Assembly: GCA_030018855.1 (NCBI GenBank)
Contig: JASEHG010000001.1
Span: forward strand, 1-36,280
Length of the DNA stretch: 36,280 nucleotides
DNA from: Candidatus Brocadiaceae bacterium
GTDB lineage: Bacteria; Planctomycetota; Brocadiia; Brocadiales; Bathyanammoxibiaceae
Reading direction: 5' to 3'
This document shows, piece by piece, positions 1,727-36,073 of the stretch. Both the position numbers and the translations under genes were made by a program. Each line of letters starts with the position of its first letter. Position 1 is the stretch's first letter. Under the pieces are notes generated by a model, which was not told where the DNA came from, did not search any database, and was given only the letters and a program-made list of their open reading frames with translations.

Positions 1727-2779
1727 CTACTCCAGTAACAATCTTCTATGGGCTATCCTGTTGGCCAGTTTCCAGGAGGCGAGGGTCTCCCTCCGCTCGC
1801 GCTTGGAAAGCTCAGTGTAAATCTGTAGGGGCTGAATATTTTCAGCCCCTACTGCCTCGTTGATGGCCTGGGCGGCCAGTAGCCCGGTGGCCAGGGCAGA
1901 GGATATGCCTTCACCGAACATGTTAAGAAACCCTGCGGCCTCCCCGACAAGGAGTACGTTACCACTACCCAGATAAAAATTCCCCGTGGCGCAGAGGTTT
2001 GTACCCAGACAGCTGGTCTTCCTTACCAGCCTTCCCAGCTTTAATCCAAAATGTTTCTGCAGGAACTCGGTGTAAGTCTTGAGGTAAGGCCCAAATTTCT
2101 CCCCCCTCTTGACTGAGGTGCCAAAGACAATAAAATCGTCTTTCACGTTAAACCATGCGTATATCTCTCCCATACCCGGGTCAAGGAAGCCGTGATACCA
2201 TTCGGGGTCCAGGTTACATTCCCCCTCATAATAGTTCTGGTAGGCCAGGAACCAGAGACATTCCTTCTCCAGTTGGGGATTCAATTTGGCCCTTATGGAT
2301 GACAGACACCCCTCTGCCCCCACCAGATATTTACAACGTATTTCTATAGCCCCCGCTCTCTCATCCTGACAATAAAGTATTATCTCTCTACCATTAACCC
2401 TAAAGTCTTTTAGCAGACACCTGTCCCTTACCTCTGCCCCCGAGCGATCTATAAGGAATTTGTCGTACTGTGCCCGCCAGACGTTGGGCGCCCCTTCCTT
2501 CCCCCCGAAGGGCCAGTTGGTGTATTTCTCTGTGTTTTCCCAGAGGCGCACCCCTTTTATTATCTTTGGCTTGCAGTAGCATTCCTCTGGGATTTGTCCG
2601 AAGTGTTTCTGGGTGAGCTTCAGGGACTTCTCGTTGATGAGTCCACTGCATATCTTGTACCTGGGGAGACTCTTTCTCTCCACCACCAGCACCCCCAGGC
2701 CGTTCTGGGTTAGTCCCTTTGCTGTCGCCGCCCCGGAAGGCCCCGCCCCCACCACCACCACGTCGTATTCCCTATTCAT
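1727..2779 (-). CDS. FAD-dependent oxidoreductase, geranylgeranyl reductase family
   Basis: N-terminal dinucleotide-binding motif DVVVVGAGPSGAATA, and a GGR-like length and layout (350 aa). Confidence 0.75.
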   Translation of the reverse strand: MNREYDVVVVGAGPSGAATAKGLTQNGLGVLVVERKSLPRYKICSGLINEKSLKLTQKHFGQIPEECYCKPKIIKGVRLWENTEKYTNWPFGGKEGAPNVWRAQYDKFLIDRSGAEVRDRCLLKDFRVNGREIILYCQDERAGAIEIRCKYLVGAEGCLSSIRAKLNPQLEKECLWFLAYQNYYEGECNLDPEWYHGFLDPGMGEIYAWFNVKDDFIVFGTSVKRGEKFGPYLKTYTEFLQKHFGLKLGRLVRKTSCLGTNLCATGNFYLGSGNVLLVGEAAGFLNMFGEGISSALATGLLAAQAINEAVGAENIQPLQIYTELSKRERRETLASWKLANRIAHRRLLLE

Positions 2780-3211: not shown

Positions 3212-3290
3212 CAGAATACAGGATTCAGAATGCAGAATCAAGAACACAATCCGCCTTAGGCGGACTGACTACTGAATTCTAAATTCTGCA
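3212..3290. repeat. Heptamer-arm hairpin (CAGAATR arms) tipped by the palindrome TCCGCCTTAGGCGGA (3250-3264)
   Basis: tgcagaat (3231-3238) pairs with attctgca (3283-3290), and the central GC palindrome is perfect. Confidence 0.8.
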
Positions 3291-6081: not shown

Positions 6082-7017
6082 TTATCGCTCGGCCCGCCTA
6101 AGGCGGATACCGCCTCCCCTCCTGGCTACTATCACCCGCTCTATGTCTTGCAGGTCTTTTATTGCCTCCCCCCCTCCTAGATTTTCTTCCTTCAGGATAA
6201 GCCCGCTAATAGGAGCGGCTTGCCCCTCTCCCAGTTCCAGCACCAACCAGCCCCCTGGTTGTAGCCAGAGGGGGGCCCCCTTTATAATCTCTCGGTAGCA
6301 GTCCATACCGTCTTTACCAGCAATGAGCGCCTCCGGGGACTCATGGTTCCTCACCTCCGGCTGCAGTCCCTTCCACTCCCCCTCCGGGACGTAGGGGGGG
6401 TTGGAGGCAATGAAGTCCACCCTGCCCTCAAGTCCCAGGCCTTGAAAGGCGGCGTAGAGGGGGCCTTTTAGAAAAGAGATTTTGTCTTCCACCAGATGCC
6501 TCTGGGCATTAAATCGGGCCAGCCTCAGTGCCTTTTTAGAGGTATCAGAGGCATATACCTCTGCATGGGGGAGGTTGACGGCAAGGGAGACGGCTATGTT
6601 GCCGCTCCCTGTGCCGATGTCCATGATAATTGTAGATTGGGTGGGTTCTGCCCTCTGTAGTACCGCTTCCACCACCAGTTCCGTCTCGGGTCTGGGGATG
6701 AACACCCCTTCTTCTGTCAGGAAGTCAATGGACATGAATTCTACATGCCCAATAATGTACTGGAGGGGTACCCTGGCGGCCCTCTTTTTGACTAGACGTC
6801 GGAAGGTTCTCAGGGGGGCGGTGTCTATGGATTCATTAAGTCTGGCGTAGAGTTGGTGTCTTGGTAGGCTTAAGACTTCTGAGAGGAGTACCTCGGCGTC
6901 TAAGCGGGGGGAATCTACCCCTGTCTTCTCCAGGAGTTGAGTGGCCTCTAGCAATGCCTCCTGGAGGCTCTTAGACCCTTTCTGAGGGCTCAGCGGGGCA
7001 CTACGATGAGGCATCAA
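6082..7017 (-). CDS. prmC: Release-factor glutamine N5-methyltransferase PrmC/HemK, with a repeat-derived C-terminal tail
   Basis: SAM motif DIGTGSG and catalytic NPPY. It lies directly downstream of prfA. The last ~11 codons (GGGIRLRRAER) overlap the palindrome CCGCCTAAGGCGG at 6094-6106. Confidence 0.9.
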   Translation of the reverse strand: MMPHRSAPLSPQKGSKSLQEALLEATQLLEKTGVDSPRLDAEVLLSEVLSLPRHQLYARLNESIDTAPLRTFRRLVKKRAARVPLQYIIGHVEFMSIDFLTEEGVFIPRPETELVVEAVLQRAEPTQSTIIMDIGTGSGNIAVSLAVNLPHAEVYASDTSKKALRLARFNAQRHLVEDKISFLKGPLYAAFQGLGLEGRVDFIASNPPYVPEGEWKGLQPEVRNHESPEALIAGKDGMDCYREIIKGAPLWLQPGGWLVLELGEGQAAPISGLILKEENLGGGEAIKDLQDIERVIVARRGGGIRLRRAER

Positions 7018-7035: not shown

Positions 7036-8124
7036 TCAATGGGTCGCCACCAGTTGTCTTAATTGTTCTTCCCTGCTGTATGCCTGGAGTTGTTCCAGCA
7101 GCTCGTCTATGTGGCCTAGCATGAACTTTTCCAGGTCGTAGAGGGAGAAGTTTATCCTATGGTCAGTAACACGGTTCTGCGGGAAATTATAGGTGCGGAT
7201 CTTTTCGCTACGGTCTCCGGTACCAATCTGTCCTTTGCGGGTCTTATCCCTCTTCTGCCTCTCTTGCTCCTCGTAGAACTCGTGGAGGCGGCTCTTGAGG
7301 ATCCGTTCGGCCTTGGACCTGTTTTTGTGCTGGGACTTCTCGTCCTGGCATCTTACGATTATCCCGGTGGGGATGTGGGTCATCCGGACGGCGGAGCTGG
7401 TCTTATTGACTTTTTGCCCCCCTGGCCCGGAGGCCCTCATGGTCTCAACCTTTAAGTCCTTCGGGTCTATATTGATTTCTACGTCTTCTACCTCTGGCAA
7501 GACGGCTACGGTAGCGGTTGAGGTGTGTATCCTACCCTGGGTCTCCGTAGCAGGTATCCTTTGTACCCTGTGGGTGCCGCTCTCGTGGCGGAGTCTCTGA
7601 TAGGCGCCCTCTCCCTCCACGGAGAAGATGACCTCTTTAAACCCGCCTATTTCCGTAGGGCTGCTATCAAAGACTTCTACCTTCCAGTCCTGTCTTTCTG
7701 CGTACTTTACGTACATACGGAACAGGTCTGCGGCGAACAGTGCCGCCTCCTCTCCCCCTGTCCCCGCCCTTATCTCCATGATGACACCCCCCTGTGCTCC
7801 TCCCTCCCGGGAGAGGAGTTGGTTGGTAATGTCTTCCATGAGTTCTTTCTCTTTTGCCTCTAGCCCCTGGAGTTCCTCCCGGGCCAGATGCTGGAATTCC
7901 TTGTCTTCCCCACCTGAGACAATCCTCTCTGCCTCTTCCTTTTGCTGGAGGAGTTGGGTGAACTGGAGGTAACGCTGGACTATCCTGGAGAGACTGCCCC
8001 TTTCCTTCATATAGGTGCCGTACTGGGCAGGATTGGCTAACGTGGCAGGGTCAGCTATCAGCCTCTCCAGCTCCATATACCTCTCGTTCAACGCCTTCAG
8101 TTTTTGTAACAGGTTGTCCTTCAT
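7036..8124 (-). CDS. prfA: Peptide chain release factor 1
   Basis: PAT tripeptide (RF1-type) and the GGQ motif [11 protein letters not shown]. Its start overlaps the rpmE stop as ATGA. Confidence 0.97.
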
Positions 8125-8402
8125 TTTTTCTCTTCGGGTGGCAGGGCTGCTACCGAGGGGCTGCCTGGGGCGGCTACCGCCTCTTCTTTTTCTACGGCCT
8201 TAGCGCTCTTTCTGTACCGGCGACGGAACCTCTCCACCTTGCCGGTGGTGTCTACCAGTCTCTGTCTGCCCGTATAAAACGGGTGGCACTTGGAACATAT
8301 TTCAACCACTATCTTGGGCTTGGTGGAGCGGGTCTTAAAGGTCTCGCCGCAGCCGCATGTCACCGTCGCCTCTACGTATTCAGGATGTATATCTTTTTTC
8401 AT
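8121..8402 (-). CDS. rpmE: 50S ribosomal protein L31 (Zn-ribbon type), with a roughly 28-aa Ala/Glu/Pro-rich C-terminal extension
   Basis: [10 protein letters not shown]-terminus and the CxC...CxxCH cysteines. Confidence 0.92.
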
Positions 8403-8461: not shown

Positions 8462-8530
8462 CTAGGGACTAAGCACTAGGCACTGAGGACTAAAAGAAGA
8501 CTTGTTTACTGCCTAGTGCTTAGTGTCCAG
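8462..8530 (-). terminator. Heptamer-arm hairpin (GCACTAR units) overlapping the resB stop and followed by TATTTT on the minus strand. Candidate intrinsic terminator of ccsA-resB.
   Basis: 13-bp perfect core: taagcactaggca (8470-8482) pairs with tgcctagtgctta (8510-8522). Confidence 0.5.
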
Positions 8531-9980
8531 TAAGGGCCTGACCCAACTTTTCCATCATCCCGGCCTCTCCCCCCCAAATCCCTGCCCTCTGCAGTTGTAC
8601 ATAGGCCCGGCTACCCTCAGACGGTCCGCCTGAGGCGGATGCCACCTTCTCTACTACGTAACTGACTCTCAGCCACCGCCCCCAGGTCCTGAAGAGCATC
8701 CCGAAGAAGAGTACAGGGACCGCTATCCAGAGGAGGGCTACCCCTGGGTCATGACGATAGCTCAGGACAGTCCCAGCCTGGATGTTTCCAACCCCCACCC
8801 GCACCTCTTTAACCTCCTTTGTCTCACCCTCGTAAATCTTAAGTATTTCAGGCCTCTGCCCTTCCCCAGGGGTATAGGTCAGTTTCACAAAGGGACGGAT
8901 GGTGCAGGGACTTCCATCTTTTAAGAGTAACGTGCCTGAGATTACCTGCATGGTGCTGAATTCCCCCTCTAGTCCTGGTAGCTTATACGTACCCTTCTCG
9001 TCGGGTTCTACCTTTACCCCATTGGCAAAGAGGTCAAAGCGGTAGTCGTAGGCACTCTGGTAGAAGGTGAGTCCCCTGTAGCGTAAGGGTTCATTGACCC
9101 TGACGGTGACTTCCTTTTCAGGCTGCCTGGCATCGTATACCACTATGCGGCTGGCATACTCTACGGCGTAGAGGGCATCCTCCTTAGAAGAGACTACTAG
9201 CCCCCCTTGCTTCAGGGTCTCCTTGAGCCGTGGGCCGAAACCCTTTGCGGGGAAGCCCTCTATGCTGGGCTTCTGGGTGTATTTAATAGAAAATTTCTCA
9301 AGACCCAGTTTGAACTTCTTCTCAGGGGGCGCCTCCAGATGCTTTTCACCCCCGGTATACTTGTTCCACCTTATATCCTTTGAGACGGTGGCAACGTCTA
9401 CAGGCTCTCCTGGATAGATAGTCAGGTTAGACTCAAAGGCAAAGAGGAAGGTTATCATGGCCCCAATTACCGTGAGGATGACGGAGATGTGATAGGAGAG
9501 GGAGAGCCATACATAGTGGATAAAGCCTTGTTCAAGGACTCCTCCTGAGTGGACTTCTCCCATAAGGTGGGCAGGTTTCCTGAGGAATAGCCTTTTCTTG
9601 AAGAATCCCTCAATCCGCCTTGTGGCCTCTTCGGGGCCGTAGGGCAACTTGAACCCCACCGTGGCCTTATGTGCAGAGAGGGTAGAGACGGAGAGCATAG
9701 CCGGCTTCCTTATCTTGAGCACCCACGTGAGGCGCTTATAGGTGCAGAGGCAGAGGTTGAGGAAGAAGAGCCCCGACACCCCCAGGAACCAGGGGCCTGA
9801 ATAGACGTTAAGGAGGTCCAGCCCTTTTATAATCCTTAGGGCTAGCCCCGTTACCTTAATCTGCCCGTAGTCCCCACCGTAGGGCAGTATGTTCCCCACC
9901 AGATAAAATAAGAGGAGGATACCAAAGAGTACGATGGACGTCTTGGTGGAGCTCAATATGTCGTAGAGGGCGGAGAGCAT
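8520..9980 (-). CDS. resB: Cytochrome c biogenesis protein ResB/Ccs1 (system II)
   Basis: I place the start at the internal ATG (MLSALYDILSSTKTSIVLFGILL, a typical ResB N-terminus). This removes the overlap with ccsA. The layout is a large soluble domain flanked by TM segments. Confidence 0.85.
   Translation of the reverse strand: MLSALYDILSSTKTSIVLFGILLLFYLVGNILPYGGDYGQIKVTGLALRIIKGLDLLNVYSGPWFLGVSGLFFLNLCLCTYKRLTWVLKIRKPAMLSVSTLSAHKATVGFKLPYGPEEATRRIEGFFKKRLFLRKPAHLMGEVHSGGVLEQGFIHYVWLSLSYHISVILTVIGAMITFLFAFESNLTIYPGEPVDVATVSKDIRWNKYTGGEKHLEAPPEKKFKLGLEKFSIKYTQKPSIEGFPAKGFGPRLKETLKQGGLVVSSKEDALYAVEYASRIVVYDARQPEKEVTVRVNEPLRYRGLTFYQSAYDYRFDLFANGVKVEPDEKGTYKLPGLEGEFSTMQVISGTLLLKDGSPCTIRPFVKLTYTPGEGQRPEILKIYEGETKEVKEVRVGVGNIQAGTVLSYRHDPGVALLWIAVPVLFFGMLFRTWGRWLRVSYVVEKVASASGGPSEGSRAYVQLQRAGIWGGEAGMMEKLGQALTGH
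8623..8646 (-). repeat. In-frame copy of the TCCGCC-N3-GGCGGA palindromic module inside resB (encodes VASASGGP)
   Basis: Minus strand GGTGGCATCCGCCTCAGGCGGACC. Near-identical modules occur in the same frame at 30383-30409 and 33825-33851. Confidence 0.8.
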
Positions 9981-9986
9981 ATTTTT

Positions 9987-10059
9987 AGGGGTTAGGGAGT
10001 AGGGGGGAGGGGGTAGAGGGAAAAGATTGCTAATCCCCACTCCCCACTCCCTACCCCCT
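9987..10059. repeat. G-tract arm / C-tract arm hairpin filling the ccsA-resB spacer
   Basis: aggggttagggagtaggggggagggggtagaggg ... tccccactccccactccctaccccct. Confidence 0.85.
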
Positions 10060-10063
10060 GTTT

Positions 10064-10987
10064 CTAATAGGCATGCATGCTGTAGAGGCCAAAGAGCTTG
10101 GTAAGGAAGCCACTGCCCATAAACGTAATGAGCATGCAGGAGAATCCCAGCAGGCAGAAGACTGAGCCCCATACCGGCCTCCACTGAGGTATAGACATGG
10201 TGTGGAGGTACATGGCAAAGGTCGTCCAGGTTATGAGGGACAGTATCTCAAAGGGGTCCCATGACCAGTACCTCCCCCAGGCATCATCTGCCCAGGCAGC
10301 CCCTGAAATCATGCCAAAGGTTAATAGCGGGAACCCCATTAGTATCAGCAGGTAAGATAGCCTGTGGAAGGTTTCTACTTCCAGGGAGGGCAGACCGTAG
10401 TCCTCCCAGGTCCTCCTGGTAACTCCCAGGGCCTTTATTATGACGTAAGATAGCTCCACGGAGCATCCCACCACGAATACGGCGTAGGCGCCAAAGGCTA
10501 TCAGTACATGCCAGAAGTACCAGGGGCTCTGCAGGGCAGGGGCCAGGGGTGTAACCACCGGACTATACTTGTTTATGGCTATGAATAGGGCGGCTATAGA
10601 GAGCATGGTGACAAAGATTCCTGGGGTAGTGAGTTCTGCCCACCGCCTCCTTATAAAGAGATAAGTGGCGGTATTGCACCAGGCAAACCAGGAGAGGCAC
10701 TCGTATTTATTTTGTACGGGTGGCTGTCCCTCCTCAATGCCTCTGAGCATAATGAGCAGGGTATGGGCAAGTACGGCCAGGAGGAGGGTTCGGGTGGCCA
10801 TCCTGCCCACCGCAAAACTCCTCAGCGGCGGTAGGGCCACCCTGGATAGCACCGCAGGCAGGATGGAGCTTATCCAGAACTGGAGGAGGTGGAGGACACA
10901 ACTCAGGATATATAGTCCCACCACGGCAAAGAATAGCCTCATCTCCAGGGTAAGTAACGTACTCTCCCTAAAGAATATCTCTTGCAT
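10064..10987 (-). CDS. ccsA: Cytochrome c biogenesis protein CcsA/ResC (haem handling, system II)
   Basis: Polytopic membrane protein with the Trp-rich WWD-type motif WADDAWGRYWSWDPFE. Confidence 0.9.
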   Translation of the reverse strand: MQEIFFRESTLLTLEMRLFFAVVGLYILSCVLHLLQFWISSILPAVLSRVALPPLRSFAVGRMATRTLLLAVLAHTLLIMLRGIEEGQPPVQNKYECLSWFAWCNTATYLFIRRRWAELTTPGIFVTMLSIAALFIAINKYSPVVTPLAPALQSPWYFWHVLIAFGAYAVFVVGCSVELSYVIIKALGVTRRTWEDYGLPSLEVETFHRLSYLLILMGFPLLTFGMISGAAWADDAWGRYWSWDPFEILSLITWTTFAMYLHTMSIPQWRPVWGSVFCLLGFSCMLITFMGSGFLTKLFGLYSMHAY

Positions 10988-11137: not shown

Positions 11138-11294
11138 GATTCAGAGGTCAGAATTCAGTAGTAGATAATGGACTATGGACTATAGACCAGGGACTACGGA
11201 CTAAAGAAAGTCTATAGTCCAAAGTCCAGAGTCTAAAGTCTTTCCGCCTCAGGCGGATTAGTATTCTGAATTCTGACTACTGACTTCTGTATTC
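11138..11294. repeat. Nested heptamer hairpins. Outer arms are GAATTCA/CAGTAGT-type, inner arms are GGACTAY-type, and the palindrome TTCCGCCTCAGGCGGA lies at about 11242-11257.
   Basis: ggactatagac pairs with gtctatagtcc, and gaattcagta with tctgaattctgactac. Read directly. Confidence 0.75.
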
Positions 11295-11374: not shown

Positions 11375-11493
11375 GGGACTAGGGGTTAGGGATTAAGGGC
11401 TAGGGATAGGGGAAGAAATATAACGCAGGCTAATCTGCCTGAGGCGGACTGCGGCTACCCCTGCCCTCTGGCCCCTAATCCCTGACTCCTGCC
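11375..11493 (+). promoter_or_regulatory. Structured 5' leader. G-tract arm (11375-11412, six G3-4 runs), a central CTGCCTGAGGCGG palindrome, and a complementary C-tract arm (11455-11493) ending 7 nt before the start codon.
   Basis: Read directly. No SD-like sequence lies between the hairpin base and the ATG. Confidence 0.6.
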
Positions 11494-13804: not shown

Positions 13805-13835
13805 CTAGTAGGGGCACGTTGCAATGTGCCCCTGC
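13805..13835. repeat. Palindromic element CTAGTAGGGGCACGTTGCAATGTGCCCCTGC
   Basis: It matches 29 of 31 nt of the element inside tsaD at 35741-35771. Confidence 0.9.
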
Positions 13836-14497: not shown

Positions 14498-14517
14498 ATT
14501 GGCCTCACCCTATTCGC

Positions 14518-19126: not shown

Positions 19127-19173
19127 GGTCTTGTCCTCTCTTTGACTTCTGTCGTAAACACAGCCTAACTCTT

Positions 19174-19244: not shown

Positions 19245-21506
19245 CTACTCTGTGATGGGGAGGAGCACTGAGAAGGTACTGCCCCTTCCCTGGACGCTTG
19301 AGACCCTGAGCTTCCCATCATGGTCATCTACAATCTTATGGCTTACCACCAGTCCCACACCGGTCCCAGAGGTCTTGGTGGTGAAGAAGGGGGTGAATAT
19401 CTTTTCTATCACCTCCGGGGCCATACCCTGCCCCGTATCCGAGATATCCGTCCTTATGTACTGTTCTTCCCGAGTAGACTGGACGGTGAGGGTACCACCT
19501 TCTTCCATAGATTCTACCGCATTCTTTATAAGGTTTAGGAGTACCTGTTTTATCTGGGCAGGGTCCAGGAAGGTAGGAGGCAGGCCGGGGGAGAAGTTCT
19601 TTATCAGGTTTATCCCCCTCTCTCTCAGGTATCCCTCCGTTAGACAACAGGTATCTTCCAACAAGGTGTTTATGTCCACACGGACCTTTCTTGGCTCCTG
19701 GGGCTTGCTGAAGTCCTTTATGTTGCCCAATATCTTTTCCAGCCTGCTGACCTCTTCTACTATAATCCTGGCGGCTGTAGCCACGTCCTCCTCTTCTGGT
19801 TTGGTCTTTTCTATACTGCGTGCAAAACCCCCGATGGTCACCAGGGGGTTACGGATCTCGTGGGCAATATAGGTGGATATCTCGCCCATGGCCACGAGTC
19901 GCTCCGAGCGGCAGAGCCTCTCCTGAGTCTCCCTGAGTTGCTCTATCTTTTCTTCCAGGGATTTGTAAGTCTCGGCGTTTTCCATTGCAAGGGCCGCCTG
20001 CCCTGCAAAGATGTTTAGCAGTTGGACGTGGTCCTCAGTGATGGGTTCCCTGCTGTAGGGATTGTCCGCCACTATTACCCCTACGGCCCTCCCTTTTACT
20101 ACAAGGGGGATGCAGACGAATTCCTTAGAGCCAAGGAATTCCCGGAACTCCCTCGTTACCCTAGGGTCAGTAGCCGCCTCTTTTACTACCTGGGAACGCA
20201 TCTCCTTGACGCACCTCACCACTATCTCCTCCTCCTTGTTCAGGGGATAGACCAGTAAACGGGTCTTTACGTTGAGTGGTGAGTCCAGTGGCTCCCTCTC
20301 CATTACCTCCTTGAGGAGTTCTTCCAGGGTGGGGTATCTCTGAGAGACGTCTTGCCATACCCTGGCGGCCTCTTCTCCGCTGGAGGGGCCTACGGCGGCC
20401 TTGCCATAGACTGACCTCTTCTCCTCGTCCACCAGGAACAGGAATGCCCGGTTAAAGGCCAGGGCCTGTCCGGCCGTAACGCTGGTGAGGATGAGGTTGA
20501 GGAGTTTTTCTATGTTAAGCGTCTCGTGGAGGGCCTGCCCCAGTTCCCTGAGGAGGGAGAGTTGCCTGAGCCTCTTTTCCCTCTGTGTGATGTCTCGTGA
20601 GAGGACCAGCACGTGGCCCAACTCCCCCTGCTCGTCCCGGATGGGGATGGCAGTATTCTCAATGTATCGTCTCCTGCCTTCCTTGACCACCGTCTTTATC
20701 TCTCTATAACGGCCCGCGGCACTCTCAAAGGCCCTGGCTACCGGGCAGTAAGCCTCGGCGCATTGAAAGACGTCCTTGCATCTGGCCCCTTTGGGCAGTT
20801 CGGTCAAACCCCATACCTTCGGGAGGTTTGCATTGGCCCAGAGGATGTTCATGCCCCTGTCCATGAGGCAGAGGCCTATCCCGAGTACGTCTACAACGTA
20901 GTCAAGTTTCTCCTTCTCCCGACGTAACTGTTCTTCTGCAAGTCTGGCATTGTTATAAAGATTTTTGTATCTTTCTTCAGAGAGCGTGATCTTCTCAAAG
21001 AGGAGGGTATTCTCCGTTATCATGGCAAGTTGGGGGCATATCTCCTCTAACAGGGGAAATTGGGTCGTAGAGAAATGGTGTGGCTCCATGCTGCTGAAAT
21101 TAATGCTACCTATGACTCTCCCCCTTACCTTCAGGGGATATCCCAGGCGAGACCGTATCCCTGTCTTATAAAAGAGGCCGTTAGTACTGTGGCTACCACT
21201 TTTAGTGTCTTCTACTATGATAGGCTCTCCCGTAAGCAGGATTCGCTCCAGGAGACTCCCCTCCAAGGGGTAGGGCTTCCCCTCCTCAAGGACATTGATA
21301 GTGTTGGTTGCGGAGGCCACAAAGGTAACGGCATGGTTATCCCCCTCCGTGGGAACAGAGATGCTGACCCTGTCAAAGGCCATTACCTTTTTTAATTCAT
21401 TTACGACTGAGACGTAAATGTCTCTTAAATTAAGGCTGGAAGAGATTATTCTCTGTATGTTGGAGATTACTTCTTTTCGTGCGGGATATAATTCTACTAA
21501 TTTCAT
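19245..21506 (-). CDS. Cytoplasmic sensor histidine kinase, GAF - PAS (Cys-rich) - GAF - HisKA - HATPase_c
   Basis: H-box STYIAHEIRNPL, N box LLNLIKNA, G boxes DTGQGM and GTGVGL. No TM segments. Two GAF-like regions flank a PAS-like region. Confidence 0.88.
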   Translation of the reverse strand: MKLVELYPARKEVISNIQRIISSSLNLRDIYVSVVNELKKVMAFDRVSISVPTEGDNHAVTFVASATNTINVLEEGKPYPLEGSLLERILLTGEPIIVEDTKSGSHSTNGLFYKTGIRSRLGYPLKVRGRVIGSINFSSMEPHHFSTTQFPLLEEICPQLAMITENTLLFEKITLSEERYKNLYNNARLAEEQLRREKEKLDYVVDVLGIGLCLMDRGMNILWANANLPKVWGLTELPKGARCKDVFQCAEAYCPVARAFESAAGRYREIKTVVKEGRRRYIENTAIPIRDEQGELGHVLVLSRDITQREKRLRQLSLLRELGQALHETLNIEKLLNLILTSVTAGQALAFNRAFLFLVDEEKRSVYGKAAVGPSSGEEAARVWQDVSQRYPTLEELLKEVMEREPLDSPLNVKTRLLVYPLNKEEEIVVRCVKEMRSQVVKEAATDPRVTREFREFLGSKEFVCIPLVVKGRAVGVIVADNPYSREPITEDHVQLLNIFAGQAALAMENAETYKSLEEKIEQLRETQERLCRSERLVAMGEISTYIAHEIRNPLVTIGGFARSIEKTKPEEEDVATAARIIVEEVSRLEKILGNIKDFSKPQEPRKVRVDINTLLEDTCCLTEGYLRERGINLIKNFSPGLPPTFLDPAQIKQVLLNLIKNAVESMEEGGTLTVQSTREEQYIRTDISDTGQGMAPEVIEKIFTPFFTTKTSGTGVGLVVSHKIVDDHDGKLRVSSVQGRGSTFSVLLPITE

Positions 21507-23816: not shown

Positions 23817-23828
23817 CTGGTGGCCTTC

Positions 23829-23862
23829 CTTAAACTCTTAAACTTTTGAACCTTTAAACTCT
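23829..23862. repeat. TTAAACTC/TTGAACC repeat tract, complementary to the tract at 16735-16785
   Basis: The reverse complement ggttcaaaagtttaagagtttaag matches 21 of 24 nt of ggttcaaaggtttaaaagttcaag. Confidence 0.65.
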
Positions 23863-25299: not shown

Positions 25300-25318
25300 A
25301 TTTTAAGTTCCTCCAAAA

Positions 25319-25383
25319 CCAGCAGTAGATAGTAAGCAGAAGGCACTGCTTTCTGCTTACTTCTTACTCCTTACTGCCTACTG
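25319..25383. repeat. Heptamer-arm hairpin (GTAAGCA/CAGTAGA units) between the GalT-like gene and glgA
   Basis: 10-bp perfect core: gtaagcagaa (25332-25341) pairs with ttctgcttac (25351-25360). Confidence 0.8.
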
Positions 25384-26388
25384 TTTTTTAGTTGGTTTTA
25401 CCTGTCTAAGATATTCTGCCGCATTCTCTGGGGGCACGGGGTTGATGTAGAATCCAGTACCCCACTCAAAACCTGCCACCCTGGTGAGTCTGGGGATTAT
25501 CTCTATGTGCCAGTGGTAATAATCCAGTTCCGGGTGGTCAAAGGGACTGGTGTGGATGATGAAGTTGTAGGGGGGTTGCTCAAGACTGCCTTCCAGCTTG
25601 GCCAGGGCAGTCCACAGGGTCTCTGCCAGTTCTTCTACCTCAAACTTCTGGATGTTCTCAAAATGGGAAGAATGGTTCTTGGGTAGTATCCACAGTTCAA
25701 AAGGGAACCTGGAGGCATAGGGGGTAAAGGTGCAGAAGTAGGTGCCGTCTAATACTATTCGGCTGGCCGTAGATATCTCCTGTCTCATCATGTCGCAGAA
25801 GAGGCATCTTCCCCTGTACTTGTAGAAGGCGAGACTGCCTTCCATTTCCGTGGCTACCACGAGGGGGACAATAGGGGTAACGATGAGCTGGGTATGGGTA
25901 TGCTCAAGGCTGGCCCCGGCCGTGGCCCCCACGTTCTTGAAGAGCATACCGTATATCATCCTCTTGTCCTTCTTCAGGTCAACCAACCTGTCCCTGTAGG
26001 TCCAGATTACCTCCTGGATGTAGCGAGGTTCCAGGTCTGTGAGGGAGATGACGTGCTGGGGGCATTCTATTATTACCTCGTGGGCGCCTATACCGTTCAT
26101 AAGGTCATAAATGCCGTCTCCGCGCTTGCTGAGTTCGCCTTCTATCTTGAGGGCGGGGAATTTGTTTGGCACCACCCTTACCCTCCATCCCCTGGAATTA
26201 GGGCTGCTTCCGCGCTCCCTGTAGGCCATAATCTCTGGCGGGGTCTTGTCCTCGTTCCCCGCGCAGAAGGGGCAGAAGTTACCCTTTATAGCGGAAGGGG
26301 CGGTGATAAAATCAGAGGGCCTGAGGGCCCTTTCTGTGGCAATGATTACCCATCTCCCAGATACGGGTTCTTTTCTTAGTTCAGGCAT
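25378..26388 (-). CDS. GalT-family (HIT superfamily branch III) hexose-1-phosphate nucleotidyltransferase/phosphorylase
   Basis: CPFCAGNE Zn motif and the HxHxQ active site (EHTHTQ). The start is set at the ATG at 26388, preceded by AAGGAG. The TTG-extended ORF runs into the repeat. Confidence 0.8.
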
Positions 26389-26402
26389 AGAGTCTCCTTT
26401 TT

Positions 26403-26467
26403 CAGTAGACGGCAAACAGTAGACAGCATACAGGGATAGTGATACCCCTGTCTACTGTCTACTGTCT
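26403..26467. repeat. Heptamer-arm hairpin (CAGTAGA units) between GH57 no.3 and the GalT-like gene
   Basis: acagtagacag (26416-26426) pairs with ctgtctactgt (26448-26458). Confidence 0.8.
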
Positions 26468-26474
26468 CCTTGCC

Positions 26475-28637
26475 TCACACCTGCCAGAATATCCTCTCAA
26501 AGTCCCTGGTAGGGGTGGTGAAGGCGAAGGGAAAGTGGTCTGGCAGTCTCTCCGTTACCTGTCCCTCCCGCTCTATCTCTACCAGAAATTCGGCATTTTC
26601 TCCAGGGGAAAGGCCAAGCTCCTGGAAGGGGCATCTGAGTTCCAGCACCTCTACGGCCGCTACTGCCTCCGGTACTATCCTAGGGGTGGTTTCACCTTTC
26701 TTGATGACTTCCAGGCCCTTTATGGGCTGTGGTGCTCCGGTCACCTGGAGCCTGACCTCTGCGGGGAGGAGGAAGATTACGGCCAGGCGGTCGCGTGTTG
26801 AGAAACGACTCAGGGCCCCTTCTTCAAAGTCTAGCCGTAGGAAGAAGTTCTCTTCATCAAAGCCAAAATACACCCCTCTAATAATCCCCCCGGAGGCCCT
26901 GTGCATTACCGGGGTATCTCTGGAGGCCCTGTAATAACCCGCCGCCACCCACTCAAAGAAACTGCTCACGCGTCCATCCAGCCGCACCTTTAGGAAACCT
27001 TTGGGTGTGGTGTAGGGTCTCTTCTTGCCGAGTTGGATTATGGGGAGGTCAAGTGACCTGGGGCTTTCGGATGCGCTAAATTTATATACGTTCTTCAGGT
27101 GGGTGCGGAAGAGTCTGTCAAAGACTTCGTCGTAGGCCGAGGAGTGGTCGTCCCCGTACCACCAGTACCAGTCACTCCCCTCACTGATGTATATGCACTC
27201 CTGGGCCAGTTCCTTATGGTTCACGCCCAGGTCCGGCCGCTTCTTCAAGAAGTCCCTGGTCTCCGCCACGTACTCCCAGGCCCGGTTCTTTTCTGCGTGG
27301 CCTACCCACGTGGCCAGGTTATGGTTTATCCACGAACCGGCGTAAAGGTCTCGCAAGGTATCCTGGGGGGGATGCCTCTCCAGGTAGTCGCTCACCCTCG
27401 TCGTCTCAATCCCTCTTTGTCGGGAAATCCCCCTGTAGAGTTCTCTCAGAAAGTCTAGCCCATTATGAGGATAGAACTCCCATGCGTTCTCTCCATCCAG
27501 GATTACGCTTACAAGGAGGGGCCGCTCGCCCCTGCCCGGCGCAATCCTCCCTAGAAAGTCTTCTACTGCGGCATGAGGGCTGTACCTCTGGTACTCAAAA
27601 CCGATGAGGTCAGAGAGGCGGTGGTCACGGAAGATTATCTGGGTCTGAGCCCCCTCGTATTCCAGGCGGTAGGGTTTATACAGGGTCTGGGGTTGATTCA
27701 CCCGCCCCTGGTGGTCACGGCCAAAGGTGGTATGTAGCGTCCTGGCCAGGATGTCTTCATCCGAGGCCATCCACTTGAGGCCGGCCCCGTTCAGGATGGG
27801 TACGAGATGCGGACTGACGGCCCCCTCCGAGGGCCAGAGGCCCTTTGGTCTACGGCCGAAGAACCTCTCATGGGTCTCCACCGCCTTCTGCACCTGGGCG
27901 ACCGCATCCTCTCCGGCCTCCAGCCTCCTCCGGGGCAGGGGGAGTTGCGGCAGGGCCTGCTGGGCCGTCCTGGGTTCGCAGAGGAGGGGGAGGATGGCAT
28001 GGTAGAAGGGGCTGGTGGTGGTCTCTGTCTGCCCGGAGGCCTCCAGTCCTCTGTGCAACTTTATTATCCTGTCTATGACCTCAGTCTGTTTAGCCAGTAC
28101 CATCCGCTTTTCTTCCTGTGAGAAGCCATGGCCCTTTTGGAAGAGGGACTGGAGGTCTCTATCTCCCTCTACCACCAGGGGGTGGAACCAGGTGAGGTTG
28201 GCCCATACCTGGAGGTCTCTGAGGTCTCTGTGGCTAAAGTCTCTTATTGCACTATCTGCGGTCTTTTTCCCGAAGGCCCGTTTCCTGAGGAGTTCCCTGT
28301 AGCGGGGATACGGCTCTATCATCCGTTCCCAGTTGGCAGAGAAGAAGTTGTCTATAAGGAAGAGGGCGTCCTTTTCCAGCAGTTCACTGGGTTCCAATTC
28401 ACTGAGTTTCTGGAACTTGTCCCTGGCCTTCCCCTGGGCATACTCCTCCAGTTGGACGAGCAGGCACGGAACGAAATTGAAATTCTGCCGGATTTCTGGA
28501 AATTCCTTCAGTATAAGCCCCATGCCTATGTAGTCCTTAATGGCATGGAACCTCACCCAGGGCAGGAGGTACTCCCCCGTACTGAGGTCCTTATAAAAAG
28601 GCTGGTGAAAGTGCCAGAGAAAGGCGATGTATATCAT
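26475..28637 (-). CDS. GH57-family glycoside hydrolase no.3 (720 aa, specificity unknown)
   Basis: N-terminus FLWHFHQPFY, nucleophile region GLWPSEGAVS, and acid/base region ILDGENAWEF. Confidence 0.8.
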   Translation of the reverse strand: MIYIAFLWHFHQPFYKDLSTGEYLLPWVRFHAIKDYIGMGLILKEFPEIRQNFNFVPCLLVQLEEYAQGKARDKFQKLSELEPSELLEKDALFLIDNFFSANWERMIEPYPRYRELLRKRAFGKKTADSAIRDFSHRDLRDLQVWANLTWFHPLVVEGDRDLQSLFQKGHGFSQEEKRMVLAKQTEVIDRIIKLHRGLEASGQTETTTSPFYHAILPLLCEPRTAQQALPQLPLPRRRLEAGEDAVAQVQKAVETHERFFGRRPKGLWPSEGAVSPHLVPILNGAGLKWMASDEDILARTLHTTFGRDHQGRVNQPQTLYKPYRLEYEGAQTQIIFRDHRLSDLIGFEYQRYSPHAAVEDFLGRIAPGRGERPLLVSVILDGENAWEFYPHNGLDFLRELYRGISRQRGIETTRVSDYLERHPPQDTLRDLYAGSWINHNLATWVGHAEKNRAWEYVAETRDFLKKRPDLGVNHKELAQECIYISEGSDWYWWYGDDHSSAYDEVFDRLFRTHLKNVYKFSASESPRSLDLPIIQLGKKRPYTTPKGFLKVRLDGRVSSFFEWVAAGYYRASRDTPVMHRASGGIIRGVYFGFDEENFFLRLDFEEGALSRFSTRDRLAVIFLLPAEVRLQVTGAPQPIKGLEVIKKGETTPRIVPEAVAAVEVLELRCPFQELGLSPGENAEFLVEIEREGQVTERLPDHFPFAFTTPTRDFERIFWQV

Positions 28638-28660: not shown

Positions 28661-28684
28661 GTAGTCGCAGGCTTTAGCCTGCGG
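28661..28684. repeat. Palindrome GTAGTCGCAGGCTTTAGCCTGCGG (CGCAGGC family copy 2)
   Basis: It matches 3147-3170 and 32619-32642. Confidence 0.9.
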
Positions 28685-28796: not shown

Positions 28797-28901
28797 GAGA
28801 ATTGGTCAACTGCCTGCCTTAGGTGGGTTAGCAATCGGAAGACCAAAGACTGATAACTGAAGACTGACAACCGAAAACCGTTCTAAAAGGAGCCCGGTTA
28901 C

Positions 28902-30628: not shown

Positions 30629-30686
30629 GTCAGCAGTCAGTAGTCAGCAAGATTATTGATAGCTGATTACTGACAGCTGACTACTG
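30629..30686. repeat. Heptamer-arm hairpin (GTCAGYA units) filling the spacer between the PpiD-like gene and ribF
   Basis: 11-bp perfect core: cagtagtcagc (30637-30647) pairs with gctgactactg (30676-30686). The ribF ATG is 3 nt downstream. Confidence 0.85.
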
Positions 30687-30689
30687 AAA

Positions 30690-31797: not shown

Positions 31798-32619
31798 TTG
31801 AACACCAGGCCCACCACTCAAGAACTCCAGACCAAGGCCAAAGAGATACGCCGCCACATTATCCGCATGCTGGCCAAGGCTGGTTCTGGTCACCCAGGGG
31901 GGTCTCTCTCTGCCACAGACCTCCTTGTGGCCCTCTATTATGGGAAACTCAGACACGACCCCAAAAACCCCAAATGGACTGAGAGGGACAGGTTCGTCCT
32001 CTCCAAGGGTCACGGTTGCCCGGCCCTTTATGCCATCCTGGCTGAGATGGGCTACTTCCCCATAAGTGAGCTAGACACACTACGTCAGTTCGGGAGCCGC
32101 CTCCAGGGGCATCCTGATATGAAGCGGACCCCGGGGATAGAGATATCCAGTGGTTCTCTGGGCCATGGTCTATCGGCAGGCGCAGGTATGGCTATGGCCG
32201 CAAGGATAGATGGCCTGGACTACAGGGTTTATGTCATGCTGGGAGATGGCGAGGTAGAAGAAGGTCAGGTCTGGGAGGCGGCCATGGCCGCAGGGCATTA
32301 CAAACTGGATAACCTCTGCGCCATACTGGACAACAACGGCCTCCAGATAGACGGCCCCATCCACGACGTCATGTCCCCCCTCCCCCTCCTTGAGAAGTGG
32401 GATGCCTTTGGGTGGCATGTAATACATATTGACGGGCACAACATGGCCCAAATACTGGAGGCCTACGACCGGGCCGAGGCCATAAAAGGTAAGCCTACCA
32501 TAATTATTGCCAAAACCGTAAAGGGTAAAGGGGTCTCTTTCATGGAGAATCAGGTGGACTGGCACGGCAAGGCCCCCACCCCTGAACAGGCAGAAAAGGC
32601 CCTGGCAGAACTGGTATAG
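31798..32619 (+). CDS. Transketolase, N-terminal (TPP pyrophosphate-binding) subunit; TTG start
   Basis: SGHPGGSLS, SKGHG and GSLGHGLS motifs. The only in-frame ATG downstream of the TTG start falls too late, at codon 24. Confidence 0.9.
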   Translation: MNTRPTTQELQTKAKEIRRHIIRMLAKAGSGHPGGSLSATDLLVALYYGKLRHDPKNPKWTERDRFVLSKGHGCPALYAILAEMGYFPISELDTLRQFGSRLQGHPDMKRTPGIEISSGSLGHGLSAGAGMAMAARIDGLDYRVYVMLGDGEVEEGQVWEAAMAAGHYKLDNLCAILDNNGLQIDGPIHDVMSPLPLLEKWDAFGWHVIHIDGHNMAQILEAYDRAEAIKGKPTIIIAKTVKGKGVSFMENQVDWHGKAPTPEQAEKALAELV

Positions 32620-32642
32620 TAGCCGCAGGCTTTAGCCTGCGG
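32619..32642. repeat. Palindrome GTAGCCGCAGGCTTTAGCCTGCGG (CGCAGGC family copy 3) in the 44-nt spacer between the transketolase subunit genes
   Basis: It starts at the last base of the TAG stop. Confidence 0.9.
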
Positions 32643-33635: not shown

Positions 33636-33641
33636 AAGGCG

Positions 33642-33706
33642 TAATTGTAAAATGAAGATTGGTCCGCCTTAGGCGGATTAAAATTTCCAATTTCCAATCT
33701 TAAATT
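33642..33706. repeat. Heptamer-arm hairpin (AATTTCC units) tipped by TCCGCCTTAGGCGGA (33663-33677)
   Basis: aagattgg (33655-33662) pairs with ccaatctt (33694-33701), around a perfect 15-nt palindrome. Confidence 0.8.
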
Positions 33707-33726
33707 TCTTGATAGGATAGATAGGG

Positions 33727-35085
33727 ATGTTCTGTATAAACAATACAAAACCCATGGCACTTAATATACTCCCCCTCATAGTAGCCCTCTTATTCCTCCT
33801 CTCCTCCCCTTGTCTTGCAGAAGAAGTGGCATCCGCCCCAGGCGGACCCCCACCCCTACCATCATACGACGAGTATTACAAGAATTATGAGGAGTTCGTA
33901 AGGGTAGTAAAACTCATCCAGGAGAAATACGTAAAGGACATAAAACTCCCGGAACTCTTTCAGGGGGCTTACAGGGGTATGCTGGAGGGGTTAGACCCTT
34001 ACAGCCAATTCTTTGGCCCCGAGGAACTGGAAGAACTGAAGGTAGAGACAGAGGGAAAGTTCGGGGGACTGGGCATTGAGGTTGTCATCCGGGACGGTGT
34101 CCTCTACGTCATCAGCCCTATCCTGGACAGTCCTGCCTTTAGGGCTGGGGTAATGGTGGGGGACAGGATAATAAAGATTGAAGGGACGTCTACTGAGAAC
34201 ATGAGCCTCAGAGACGCCGTCAGGCGTCTCAGGGGAGAACCTAGCACAGGCGTAACCATCACTGTAGTCCACCAGGGAGAGACACAAGCGGTAGATATTG
34301 TCATCGTCCGGGACATTATCCAGGTCCACTGCATACGGGGCGCCAGGATACTGGACGAGGAGGCAAAGATAGGTTACATGGCCCTTACCAGCTTCCAGGA
34401 TAATACCCTGGAGGAGATGGACAAGGCCGTTAATGAGCTTATGGGTAAAGGGATGAAGGCCCTTATCCTTGACCTGCGCTTCAACCCTGGGGGACTGTTA
34501 AACATGGCCGTAGCGGTATCGGATAGATTCCTCTCCCAGGGAGTTATAGTATCCACTAAAGGGAGGGAAGAAGAACAAAATCAGGTCTACTTAGCTACGG
34601 AAGGCGGTACCTATTCAGACCTCCCCCTTGTAATCCTGGTAAATAATGGAAGCGCCAGCGCAGCAGAGATAGTGGCCGGTGCAATACAGGACTACAAACG
34701 CGGACTCATTGTGGGCACCAAGACCTTTGGAAAAGGCTCGGTCCAAAGCCTCATCGGGGTGGAAGAGGAGCATTGTGCCTTGAAGCTCACCACCGCCTTG
34801 TACTACACCCCCTCAGGTAAATCCATTGACCACATCGGTATAGAGCCGGACGTAAAGGTGGAACTAACCCCTGCCGAGACCAAGTCACTCCACGAGTACC
34901 TTAGCAAGGTGAACATTACCAGTCAAACTGGAGAACAATTACCCCAGGAGGATACATTTGTAGACCTCCAACTCCATCGGGCCATTGAAATTATAAAAGA
35001 GGGAAAATTTTCTTTGTATCTCCTTAGCTCTGTAGAGGCAATTCATGAATCGCCCCGACTAAAAGATGTTAATCCTGGGCATTGA
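33727..35085 (+). CDS. S41-family carboxyl-terminal processing protease with PDZ domain
   Basis: Signal peptide, PDZ region GGLGIEV, LILDLRFNPGG, the Ser site GSASAAEI and the Lys site TFGKGSVQ. Confidence 0.9.
   Translation: MFCINNTKPMALNILPLIVALLFLLSSPCLAEEVASAPGGPPPLPSYDEYYKNYEEFVRVVKLIQEKYVKDIKLPELFQGAYRGMLEGLDPYSQFFGPEELEELKVETEGKFGGLGIEVVIRDGVLYVISPILDSPAFRAGVMVGDRIIKIEGTSTENMSLRDAVRRLRGEPSTGVTITVVHQGETQAVDIVIVRDIIQVHCIRGARILDEEAKIGYMALTSFQDNTLEEMDKAVNELMGKGMKALILDLRFNPGGLLNMAVAVSDRFLSQGVIVSTKGREEEQNQVYLATEGGTYSDLPLVILVNNGSASAAEIVAGAIQDYKRGLIVGTKTFGKGSVQSLIGVEEEHCALKLTTALYYTPSGKSIDHIGIEPDVKVELTPAETKSLHEYLSKVNITSQTGEQLPQEDTFVDLQLHRAIEIIKEGKFSLYLLSSVEAIHESPRLKDVNPGH
33825..33851 (+). repeat. 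In-frame copy of the TCCGCC-N3-GGCGGA module just after the signal peptide (encodes VASAPGGPP)
   Basis: AGTGGCATCCGCCCCAGGCGGACCCCC, with TCCGCC/GGCGGA as a perfect 6-bp stem. Confidence 0.8.
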
Positions 35086-36073
35086 GACCTCTTGCGACGA
35101 GACTTCCGTCGCAGTAGTAGAAGATGGACTCTCCGTCCGTTCCAACCTCGTCAGCACTCAGGAGAGACTCCATCTAAAGTATGGAGGAGTGGTACCAGAG
35201 ATAGCCTGCCGTGCCCACCTGGAGTCCCTCCTCCCCATCCTGGACGAGGCCATGAAGACCGCAGGGATAACCCTGAACGACCTGGACGCAGTAGCAGTAA
35301 CCACCACCCCCGGCCTCATTGGGGCACTCCTCATAGGGGTAACTGCGGCCAAGGCACTGGCCTGGACACTCAAGATACCTTTAATAGCGGTGCACCACCT
35401 CCACGCCCATATCTTTGCGGCTAAACTAGAACATGGCAAGGCTATGGAATTCCCCTGTCTCAGTCTGGTAGTCTCAGGGGGGCACACCAGCCTCTTCCTG
35501 AGCAGTAAAGAGACCCGGCACGAACTACTAGGGGCCACCCTTGACGATGCCGCAGGAGAGGCCTTTGATAAGGTGGCCAAACTGCTCGGCCTGGGTTATC
35601 CAGGCGGCCCAGCCATTGACAGCATTGCCAGAGAAGGAGACCCCGCACGTGTACCCTTCCCCCGCTCTTACCTGGAGCCTGGCTCTCTGGACTTCAGCTT
35701 CAGCGGACTAAAGACTGCCGTACTTTACCATTACCAGGGACTAGTAGGGGCACGTTGCAACGTGCCCCTACCCCGAAAAGAACTGGCTGACCTTGCGGCC
35801 AGCTTCCAGGAGGCCGTGGTGGACGTCCTGGTTGAAAAGACCCTCCTGGCCTTGAGAAAATACCCCGTAAAGGGAGTGGCCCTCGGGGGGGGTGTAGCCT
35901 CTAACTCTAGACTCAGGAAAAGACTCTCACTGGCCCTGGAAGGACGTCATATCAGGCCGTACTTCCCTCCTCCCGCACTCTGTACAGACAATGCCGCCAT
36001 TGTGGCGGGCCTGGCCTACTATAAATATCTGGAAGGAGAGCTTGCCTCCCTGGAGGTGGAGGCCGCGGCGTAA
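35066..36073 (+). CDS. tsaD: tRNA N6-adenosine threonylcarbamoyltransferase
   Basis: LGIETSCDETS N-terminus, HHLHAH metal motif, GGVASN and CTDNAA. It overlaps the protease gene by 20 nt. Confidence 0.95.
   Translation: MLILGIETSCDETSVAVVEDGLSVRSNLVSTQERLHLKYGGVVPEIACRAHLESLLPILDEAMKTAGITLNDLDAVAVTTTPGLIGALLIGVTAAKALAWTLKIPLIAVHHLHAHIFAAKLEHGKAMEFPCLSLVVSGGHTSLFLSSKETRHELLGATLDDAAGEAFDKVAKLLGLGYPGGPAIDSIAREGDPARVPFPRSYLEPGSLDFSFSGLKTAVLYHYQGLVGARCNVPLPRKELADLAASFQEAVVDVLVEKTLLALRKYPVKGVALGGGVASNSRLRKRLSLALEGRHIRPYFPPPALCTDNAAIVAGLAYYKYLEGELASLEVEAAA
35741..35771 (+). repeat. Perfect 28-bp palindrome GTAGGGGCACGTTGCAACGTGCCCCTAC (35744-35771) plus a shared CTA lead-in, in frame within tsaD (encodes LVGARCNVPL)
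   Basis: Matches the intergenic element at 13805-13835 at 29 of 31 nt. Confidence 0.9.

Follow-up and report, generated by a model that had tools for sequence, protein, structure and literature searches.

The question raised by this locus is how one short palindromic module came to be read in frame within several unrelated genes. The locus is the whole stretch of DNA that was analysed (the window), 36,280 nt of contig JASEHG010000001.1 (positions 1-36,280, forward strand), from an uncultured groundwater member of the Brocadiales. Copies of the module lie at 33825-33851 (+), 30383-30409 (+) and 8623-8646 (-), as the preliminary description of this DNA had reported, in genes whose products were assigned by Pfam as an S41 peptidase with PDZ domains, a PpiD-like protein (SurA_N/Rotamase_2) and ResB. 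Their consensus is GT(G/A)GCATCCGCC-YCA-GGCGGACC, and the tagged hairpin can also be written as GTRG-CATCCGCC-N3-GGCGGACC. The element is a repetitive extragenic palindrome (REP) with a GTAG/GTRG tag; its lineage and sequence family are new, and the phenomenon has been described before.

Copies of the module in coding sequence

The 24-nt module is present three times in the window with up to three mismatches (0.00 expected, from 100 dinucleotide shuffles), and its core, TCCGCCNNNGGCGGA, nine times with up to one mismatch (0.09 expected), the nine including intergenic sites at 3250, 11243, 11434 and 33663. Two more coding copies were found, a degenerate one in the gene for ribosomal protein L31 and one in prmC (Table 1). 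The stem is 6 bp and the loop 3 nt, with an outer GTGG/CCAC pair in the S41 copy, and the tag at the head of each copy is GTGG in S41 and ResB, GTAG in PpiD and L31, and GTAT in PrmC. Intact coding copies fold at -7.5 to -8.7 kcal/mol. Within 36 kb there are five tagged module copies, four untagged core copies and at least eight other GTAG palindromes, several of which abut stop codons. A search of the window with Rfam gave a tRNA as its sole match.

Relatives used for comparison were contigs 93-96% identical to the window, namely L006 (Planctomycetota metagenome-assembled genome (MAG) NC_groundwater_1467), L129, L132, L150, L151, L001 and L003; a syntenic relative of about 76% protein identity (GCA_051388875.1, the source of L002 and L004); and L123 (9.5 kb), which shares its source sample with L132. 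The best protein matches are named Candidatus Brocadiales, Ca. Tripitaka californicus and Ca. Hypogeohydataceae.

In ResB, the sequence VEK-VASASGG-PSEGS was found only in the window protein (spanning peptide SYVVEKVASASGGPSEGSR) and in P0121 (94% identity), while 31 other orthologs, at 83-39% identity, read VEK(S/T/A)P-xGS without the insert, and the DNA alignment shows an exact 21-nt gap in L004. This copy is a perfect palindrome (TCCGCC-TCA-GGCGGA) and is unchanged in L003, L006, L129 and L132; its recurrence in five independent assemblies led to the rejection of an assembly artefact. An AlphaFold model built on the ortholog alignment places the insert (model residues 446-452) in a coil or turn between strands 437-445 and 457-465, with a mean pLDDT of 80.5. 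As to the gene itself, the mechanically listed resB open reading frame (ORF; 8520..10184, minus strand) carries a spurious 68-residue N-terminal extension through an array of 7-nt repeats (9986-10020), the ResB orthologs all starting at MLSALYD, which corresponds to window position 9980.

The S41 insert begins two codons past the end of the signal peptide (...CLA-EE). In the protein alignment the window reads AEE-VASAPGGPPPLPS-YDEYY (spanning peptide EEVASAPGGPPPLPSYDEYYK) versus AEE-YDEYY in orthologs of up to 78% identity, and in the DNA alignment L002 has nothing at the insertion point. The copy consists of the GTGG tag, a perfect palindrome (TCCGCC-CCA-GGCGGA) and an outer CCAC, and it folds at -8.7 kcal/mol (z = -4.2). 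L150 carries the same 39 nt with two substitutions; the L001 copy has an extra 27-nt hairpin nested in the loop and a diverged left arm. The left-arm difference between the window and L001 was considered as a case of homogenisation between copies, and was set aside once L150 was added, ordinary drift and the nested insertion being sufficient.

The PpiD-like protein reads LKE-VASVPGGPPTK-EVAVV in the window, in six relatives at 93-94% identity and in the 78% relative P0178, and LKE-Q-EVAVV, without the insert, in 26 orthologs at 76-37% identity (protein alignment); in the DNA alignment L002 shows a net gap of 30 nt. The palindrome is decayed in the window (TCTGTC-CCA-GGCGGA), where the fold is lost (z = +0.6), and perfect in L150 and L151. 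In the corresponding AlphaFold model the insert (residues 495-505) is coil, with a pLDDT of 65-73 against about 90 on either side.

The coding inserts are thus 21, 30 (net) and 39 nt long, each a multiple of three, contain no stop codons, and differ in age: that of ResB is confined to sequences of at least 94% identity, that of PpiD is present also in the 78% relative, and the S41 site is already occupied in an 83% relative (P0002). The preliminary description had favoured insertion over an ancestral or convergent protein motif and had fixed in advance a comparison with distant orthologs that could overturn this; the comparison was made, and for ResB, PpiD and S41 the distant orthologs are gapped exactly at the module. 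It had also proposed in-frame colonisation of unrelated genes, in the manner of the Rickettsia palindromic elements (RPEs), and at sites likely to tolerate it. Both proposals are supported for these three lineage-restricted inserts, which lie in modelled coils at exposed loops in ResB and PpiD and just past the signal peptide in S41.

The peptide predicted from all three copies is V-A-S-(A/V)-(P/S)-G-G-P, and translation of the inserts is predicted from the reading frames. A common frame, as first described, applies to S41, PpiD and ResB but is not a rule: PrmC reads the module in another frame, and one of a set of paralogous membrane proteins on L123 carries it reversed, read as GPPEADAT, with gaps in the other paralogs. 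The shared reading frame is therefore a strong bias. The copies also drift. That of PpiD is decayed in the window and intact in its sister strains, the S41 copy is perfect in the window and substituted in L150, and the L31 copy is degenerate; because the decay differs between sister strains, nothing points to a function of the hairpin within genes.

The L31 and PrmC copies form C-terminal extensions. In the window L31, of 93 aa, the Pfam L31 model covers no residue beyond 63, and the L31 of L004 has 72 aa, ending ...VEN* 4 nt before the prfA start. In the window, L003 and L006 there are about 55 extra nucleotides before prfA that are read through in the L31 frame, and in the window the L31 stop codon overlaps the prfA start. 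The copy in L003 retains GGTAGCCGCCCCAGGCGGACCC, and also GGTAGCCGCCCCAGGCGGACC, and is better kept than that of the window; L006 has a variant extension. The PrmC copy covers the last prmC codons just upstream of the murA start at 6077, giving a protein of 311 aa in the window versus 299 aa in L004 (+12 residues), where the prmC stop overlaps the murA start.

Related palindromes and the link to RAYT genes

Two other families of tagged palindromes in the window, labelled D9 and D10, have GTAG directly 5' of the stem and often CTAC on the 3' side. D10-type palindromes have 12-bp stems that fold at about -14.5 kcal/mol. Of the 15 strong hairpins in the window, 9 have a GTAG-like tag; 42.7 kb from the 76% relative contain 6, none of them tagged. 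In addition, GTAGGGGC is over-represented (10 observed, 2.2 expected). The TAG of the D9 tag at 32619 is the stop codon of tktN.

A D10 palindrome is also read in frame in tsaD, and a further GTAG/CTAC-tagged palindrome in a gene for an FAD-dependent oxidoreductase. The tsaD palindrome (z = -6.0) matches the intergenic copy at 13805 with 97% identity over 29 nt, its sequence is intergenic in L150, and the best PDB match of TsaD (6nak_B) has a 9-aa gap at the palindrome. In L001 the tsaD stem is a variant with a compensatory pair. Since a stem of the L001 type is present on L123 as a family member, replacement by another member of the family is as likely as selection. The oxidoreductase palindrome has a 12-bp stem and z = -8.1; across the perfect palindromes of S41, ResB, TsaD and the FAD oxidoreductase, z ranges from -1.8 to -8.1. 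On L123, paralogous membrane proteins contain VGATRRVAPT and VGARRAVPLL, each encoded by a GTAG/CTAC-tagged palindrome. A census of about 100 kb of the lineage showed families common to intergenic and in-frame sites, usually in the register that reads GTA or GTG as Val, after which the palindrome encodes small flexible residues (A, S, P, G).

In another Brocadiia MAG (L149, GCA_030586555.1), ResB codons ~470-479 carry GTAGGGGCAGGTTTTAAACCTGCCCCTAC (VGAGFKPAPT), a perfect 29-nt palindrome with GTAG/CTAC tags, a few codons from the insertion site in the window, the same loop of ResB having been colonised independently. A literature search on REPs in anammox bacteria and on the peptide GFKPAPT found nothing relevant.

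Among the matches listed from a scan of genome contigs with a 17-base pattern, which is saturated by chance matches in G+C-rich genomes, the core TCCGCC-N3-GGCGGA lies within a longer GTAG/CTAC palindrome, GTAGGGGCA-...-CGTGCCCCTAC, in L056, L023, L061, L092, L096 and L106. The hosts of these are Terriglobia, Dehalococcoidia, Chloroflexi and another Brocadiia MAG. The outer stem of this palindrome is that of the D10 family of the window, suggesting from sequence that the TCCGCC module and D10 are related modules.

A metagenome scan with GTRGCATCCGCC-N3-GGCGGACC gave 26 contigs, about half of them sharing a further ...TGTG tail and eight ending in CTCGGCTGTG-like sequence. Two, L147 and L124 (60-64% G+C), carry genes like those of REP-associated tyrosine transposases (RAYTs), accompanied by the hairpin (Table 1). 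Their products are HUH proteins of 160-180 aa, 54% identical to each other, and both pass Pfam Y1_Tnp. The L147 protein also passes the NCBIfam RAYT equivalog NF047646 (90.8 bits; cut-off 80), and its best PDB match is E. coli TnpA-REP (4ER8). The first RAYT probe was an E. coli RAYT sequence, and its matches were verified independently. The exact hairpin of the module is, then, a REP that flanks RAYT genes in other bacteria.

RPEs reportedly lie in frame in unrelated housekeeping genes of Rickettsia, as Ogata et al. are said to have described in 2000. The element of the window resembles them in this, in its tolerated surface positions and in its absence from orthologs. It differs in its tag (GTRG, where that of RPEs is CGTC) and in host, Rickettsia being an obligate intracellular alphaproteobacterium; the two share no sequence similarity, and RPE-1, at about 100-150 nt, is far longer. 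In the way it works the element is like an RPE, but it is not a member of an RPE family. The analogy drawn in the preliminary description is supported, as is its placing of the element in a different repeat family and lineage, but the element belongs to a superfamily of GTAG/GTRG-tagged REPs that was already known.

Di Nocera et al. (2013, PMC3733652) describe 24 families of GTAG REPs in eight phyla, including Planctomycetes, and a link between these REPs and RAYT genes. The tag degenerates to GTRG, and to GTGG in Opitutus terrae. Most copies are located just downstream of ORFs, and there are intragenic in-frame copies, most numerous in O. terrae, with REP-encoded peptides of 7-10 residues such as VGAGLPA and VGPALAAG listed in a supplementary table (PMC3733652). 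RPE-4 and RPE-6 form a CGTC-tagged sister group of the GTAG REPs, and the CGTC-tagged RPEs have no known transposase link (PMC3733652, Table 1). The window elements are like GTAG REPs, notably GTAG-17 to -20 of O. terrae and GTAG-20 to -22 of Rhodopirellula baltica, in the short G+C-rich stem-loop with a GTAG, GTRG or GTGG tag, in having several families side by side, some copies 3' of genes and in-frame copies within ORFs, and in hosts that include the Planctomycetes-Verrucomicrobia-Chlamydiae (PVC) superphylum. They differ in that no TCCGCC/GGCGGA stem with a 3-nt loop was found in the text of that paper; the paper does not include the present lineage (Brocadiales, near Ca. Tripitaka/Hypogeohydataceae), and intergenic copies here are set within inverted 7-nt arrays. 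L124 and L147, with a gene and its own REPs, resemble the REP/RAYT systems or REPtrons (E. coli TnpA-REP, PDB 4ER8; Nunvar 2010, PMC2817692; Ton-Hoang/Corneloup 2021, PMC8266576), but they come from other bacteria. The inserts are also unlike miniature inverted-repeat transposable elements (MITEs), the ResB and S41 sites having no target-site duplication and 21-39 nt being below the usual MITE size.

Table 1. Location and form of the module copies, related palindromes and RAYT-like genes. Positions refer to the window except where a contig is named.
Feature	Position	Strand	Description
FAD-dependent oxidoreductase palindrome	1825..1852	-	28 nt, perfect, GTAG/CTAC; GTAGGGGCTGAA-AATA-TTCAGCCCCTAC; in frame, VGAENIQPL
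Core palindrome	3250..3264		TCCGCC-TTA-GGCGGA; between convergent genes, inverted 7-nt arrays around; cassette z = -4.1
PrmC extension	6082..6117	-	GGGIRLRRAER*, different frame, through module copy 6091-6114 (GGTATCCGCCTTAGGCGGGCC)
L31 extension (rpmE 8121..8402)	8121..8186	-	21 aa, read through a degenerate copy of the module (core 8158-8181) plus another small GTAG hairpin
resB insertion	8625..8645	-	21 nt in frame, +7 aa (VASASGG)
Core palindrome	11243..11257		in a cassette of ~230 nt (~11078-11305) of inverted heptamer arrays; fold z = -5.7
Near-copy of core	11434..11448		TCTGCC-TGA-GGCGGA; cassette of ~100 nt (~11388-11487), inverted relative to the 11243 copy; z = -4.1
D10 intergenic palindrome	13808..13833		GTAGGGGCACGTTGCAATGTGCCCCT; begins right after a stop codon; sibling 1681-1702; not in L006 at this site
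PpiD-like segment	30384..30416	+	33 nt (VASVPGGPPTK) in place of one codon, net +10 aa
D9 intergenic palindrome	32619..32642		GTAG-CCGCAGGC-TTTA-GCCTGCGG; siblings 3147-3170, 28661-28683
Core palindrome	33663..33677		GG-TCCGCC-TTA-GGCGGA-TT; between tktC and the S41 gene, in a cassette (33636-33753) that is strain-specific
S41 protease insertion	33826..33864	+	39 nt in frame, +13 aa, peptide VASAPGGPPPLPS
tsaD D10 palindrome	35744..35771	+	28 nt, perfect, GTAG/CTAC; GTAGGGGCACGT-TGCA-ACGTGCCCCTAC; in frame, VGARCNVPL
RAYT-like gene, L124	357..959	+	bracketed by inverted copies of GT(A/G)GCATCCGCC-N3-GGCGGACC
RAYT-like gene, L147	3389..3874	-	one exact and one degenerate hairpin copy on the same side of the gene

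Origin of the in-frame copies

A REP-type element (GTRG tag, 6-bp G+C-rich stem, 3-nt loop and at times a few extra bases) has been inserted in, or at the ends of, housekeeping genes; it is probable that it was mobilised by a RAYT and has since drifted roughly neutrally. The surviving copies have a multiple of three bases and no stop codon, and they lie in permissive places: the start of the mature S41 protease, a beta-hairpin turn of ResB, a surface loop of PpiD, and the tails of L31 and PrmC. The RAYT, an IS200-like HUH enzyme, would act on the hairpin in single-stranded DNA and leave no target-site duplication; none was seen at the ResB or S41 junctions in the DNA alignments, which fits IS200-type chemistry. 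Once inserted, the coding copies would be ordinary protein sequence in roughly neutral drift. As one register would put TAG in frame and others would be rich in Arg, Trp or Cys, the frame bias could be explained by selection.

Several observations weigh against RAYT-mediated insertion of a REP. A 6-bp stem with a 3-nt loop is at the short end of the REP range. The core palindrome is indeed present at the intergenic sites named in the preliminary description (3250, 11243, 11434 and 33663), but the resemblance is limited to a core of 15-18 nt and those hairpins are untagged, so that they and the coding module have only the core in common. The L124 protein scores 76.8 bits with NF047646, just under the cut-off, and searches of the window and of about 100 kb of sequence from close relatives turned up no RAYT gene; for this lineage we therefore infer RAYT mobilisation from other bacteria. 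Simple insertion does not explain the tsaD palindrome, which takes the place of a loop that in L002 is unrelated and similar in length, nor that of the FAD oxidoreductase, which adds only one residue relative to homologs of up to 56% identity and would thus be an overlay on a variable segment and not a clean insertion. Lastly, an 11-nt direct repeat, AAGGAGGTAGC, lies on either side of the PpiD insert, which is unlike an IS200-type insertion, although part of this repeat pre-exists in orthologs.

The bracketing repeat of PpiD and the lack of a RAYT gene in the lineage sequence examined count in favour of a spread without any transposase, by template switching or gene conversion at replication forks through GAR-GAR microhomology (quasi-palindrome or microhomology-templated repair). 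Such a process would also account better for the replaced loops of TsaD and of the FAD oxidoreductase, where the length changes little, and the compensatory pair that distinguishes the TsaD stems of the window and L001, as if another family member had been the template; moreover, the coding copies all follow GAR-GAR codons that pre-exist in orthologs. It is nonetheless unlikely, given that the hairpin flanks RAYT-like genes elsewhere, one of them above a curated cut-off, that the GTRG tag, a feature of RAYT cleavage and recognition, is retained at the heads of the copies, and that at the ResB and S41 junctions microhomology does not extend past the purine run.

We regard as decidedly unlikely a retention of the in-gene hairpins as DNA or RNA structures (for example a pause in transcription or translation, a site for RNase or gyrase, or one bound by a RAYT) with the peptide as a by-product. 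Perfect palindromes do persist in S41, ResB, TsaD and the FAD oxidoreductase, five assemblies have the ResB copy in identical form, the TsaD stem shows its compensatory change, and intergenic relatives at gene 3' ends are terminator-like. Against this, the PpiD fold is lost with the gene intact, the S41 copy has decayed in L150 and the L31 copy is degenerate, and L001 tolerates both a 27-nt loop insertion and a diverged left arm; the extent of change is roughly that expected from a genome divergence of 5%, and the host genes and positions have nothing in common. Nor is it easy to see VAS(A/V)(P/S)GGP as an ancestral or convergently selected motif, whether a linker or a signal for sorting or processing. 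The same peptide in the same frame in three envelope-associated proteins would suit such a motif, but it is confined to the closest orthologs with clean gaps elsewhere, the third codon positions are near identical between copies, and the same DNA, which lies also in the cytoplasmic L31 and PrmC, yields GGGIRLRRA in PrmC and GPPEADAT on L123, leaving the motif scarcely tenable. Equally remote is a reading of the core as one of the over-represented oligomers, like Chi or DNA uptake sequences, that accumulate by point mutation and are often in inverted pairs. The core is strongly over-represented and is found downstream of genes, where uptake-sequence pairs of Neisseria also occur; outside palindromes, however, GGCGGA is present 20 times (20.9 expected) and GGCGGAC four times (4.8 expected), and the coding copies are insertions, not substitutions.

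Insertion of a RAYT-mobilised REP can be carried further, to a single RAYT/REP system with a near-invariant hairpin (GT(A/G)GCATCCGCC-N3-GGCGGACC, often followed by CTCGGCTGTG) that would have spread horizontally across distant phyla and in this lineage would be actively remodelling proteins at recurrent hot-spot loops; its coding copies might still be substrates of the transposase. The points that invite this are the independent colonisation of the ResB loop in two Brocadiia lineages and the S41 site having been hit twice; we think it improbable in this full form.

REP-type hairpins add 7-21 residues to core proteins of these bacteria, among them a protease, a chaperone, a cytochrome c biogenesis protein, L31, PrmC and TsaD. 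This explains lineage-specific indels and odd peptides in MAG proteins (VASAPGGP, VGARCNVPL, VGAGFKPAPT), and annotators should be wary of ORF extensions through repeats. One specific hairpin is tied to a RAYT subfamily, on contigs of very different G+C content. Besides this tie, what goes beyond the literature is that several events within a single 36-kb window can be cleanly dated and that the same protein loops are used repeatedly; no new kind of system is revealed.

Intergenic cassettes and neighbouring features

The intergenic copies of the core at 3250 and 11243 fit a simple terminator pattern of a hairpin and a T-run; the coding copies are inside ORFs and have no T-run. Turnover of intergenic elements is evident between close strains. 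The cassette at 33636-33753 is missing in L150, L001 and L002, where tktC and the S41 gene are 6-7 nt apart. Those at 11078-11305 and 11388-11487 are missing whole in L006 (93-96% identical), as is the element at 13805, and L006 carries a REP at a site that is empty in the window.

Arrays with a 7-nt period (ACAGTAG, ACTAAGC, TAGGGGG, ATGGACT and others) occupy nearly every intergenic region of the window, for example at 521-554, 2840-2877, 3207-3238, 8461-8493, 9986-10020, 11168-11295 and 12793-12825, and further along at 14442-14587, 18684-18759, 25345-25383, 26403-26467, 28842-28878 and 30629-30687. They are often inverted around a central G+C hairpin, forming long imperfect hairpins (z of -4 to -5.7), and whole cassettes of them are present or absent between strains that are 93-96% identical.

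A perfect 47-nt inverted repeat (19173-19219 and 21648-21694) brackets a gene for a GAF-PAS-HisKA sensor kinase (19245..21506, minus strand). Its arms start with TGTAGGGGCA and contain TCCTCCCGAGGCGGA, making a compound REP-like unit. Complete identity over 47 nt between arms 2.4 kb apart suggests a recent event, or a segment that may be invertible or mobilisable.

The gene order upstream of ppiD differs between the window and the ~94% identical L150, with a breakpoint in a repeat-rich intergenic region. Window positions 21690-28637 hold a cluster of GH57, glycogen synthase and GalT-like genes, and positions 1-6800 of L150 hold a PAS-HisKA kinase, sigma-54 activators and a type II secretion system (T2SS) ATPase. 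In the GH57 family protein (26475..28637, minus strand), 287 positions of the Pfam model stretch across 423 residues, which implies at least one large insertion as judged from the model alignment.

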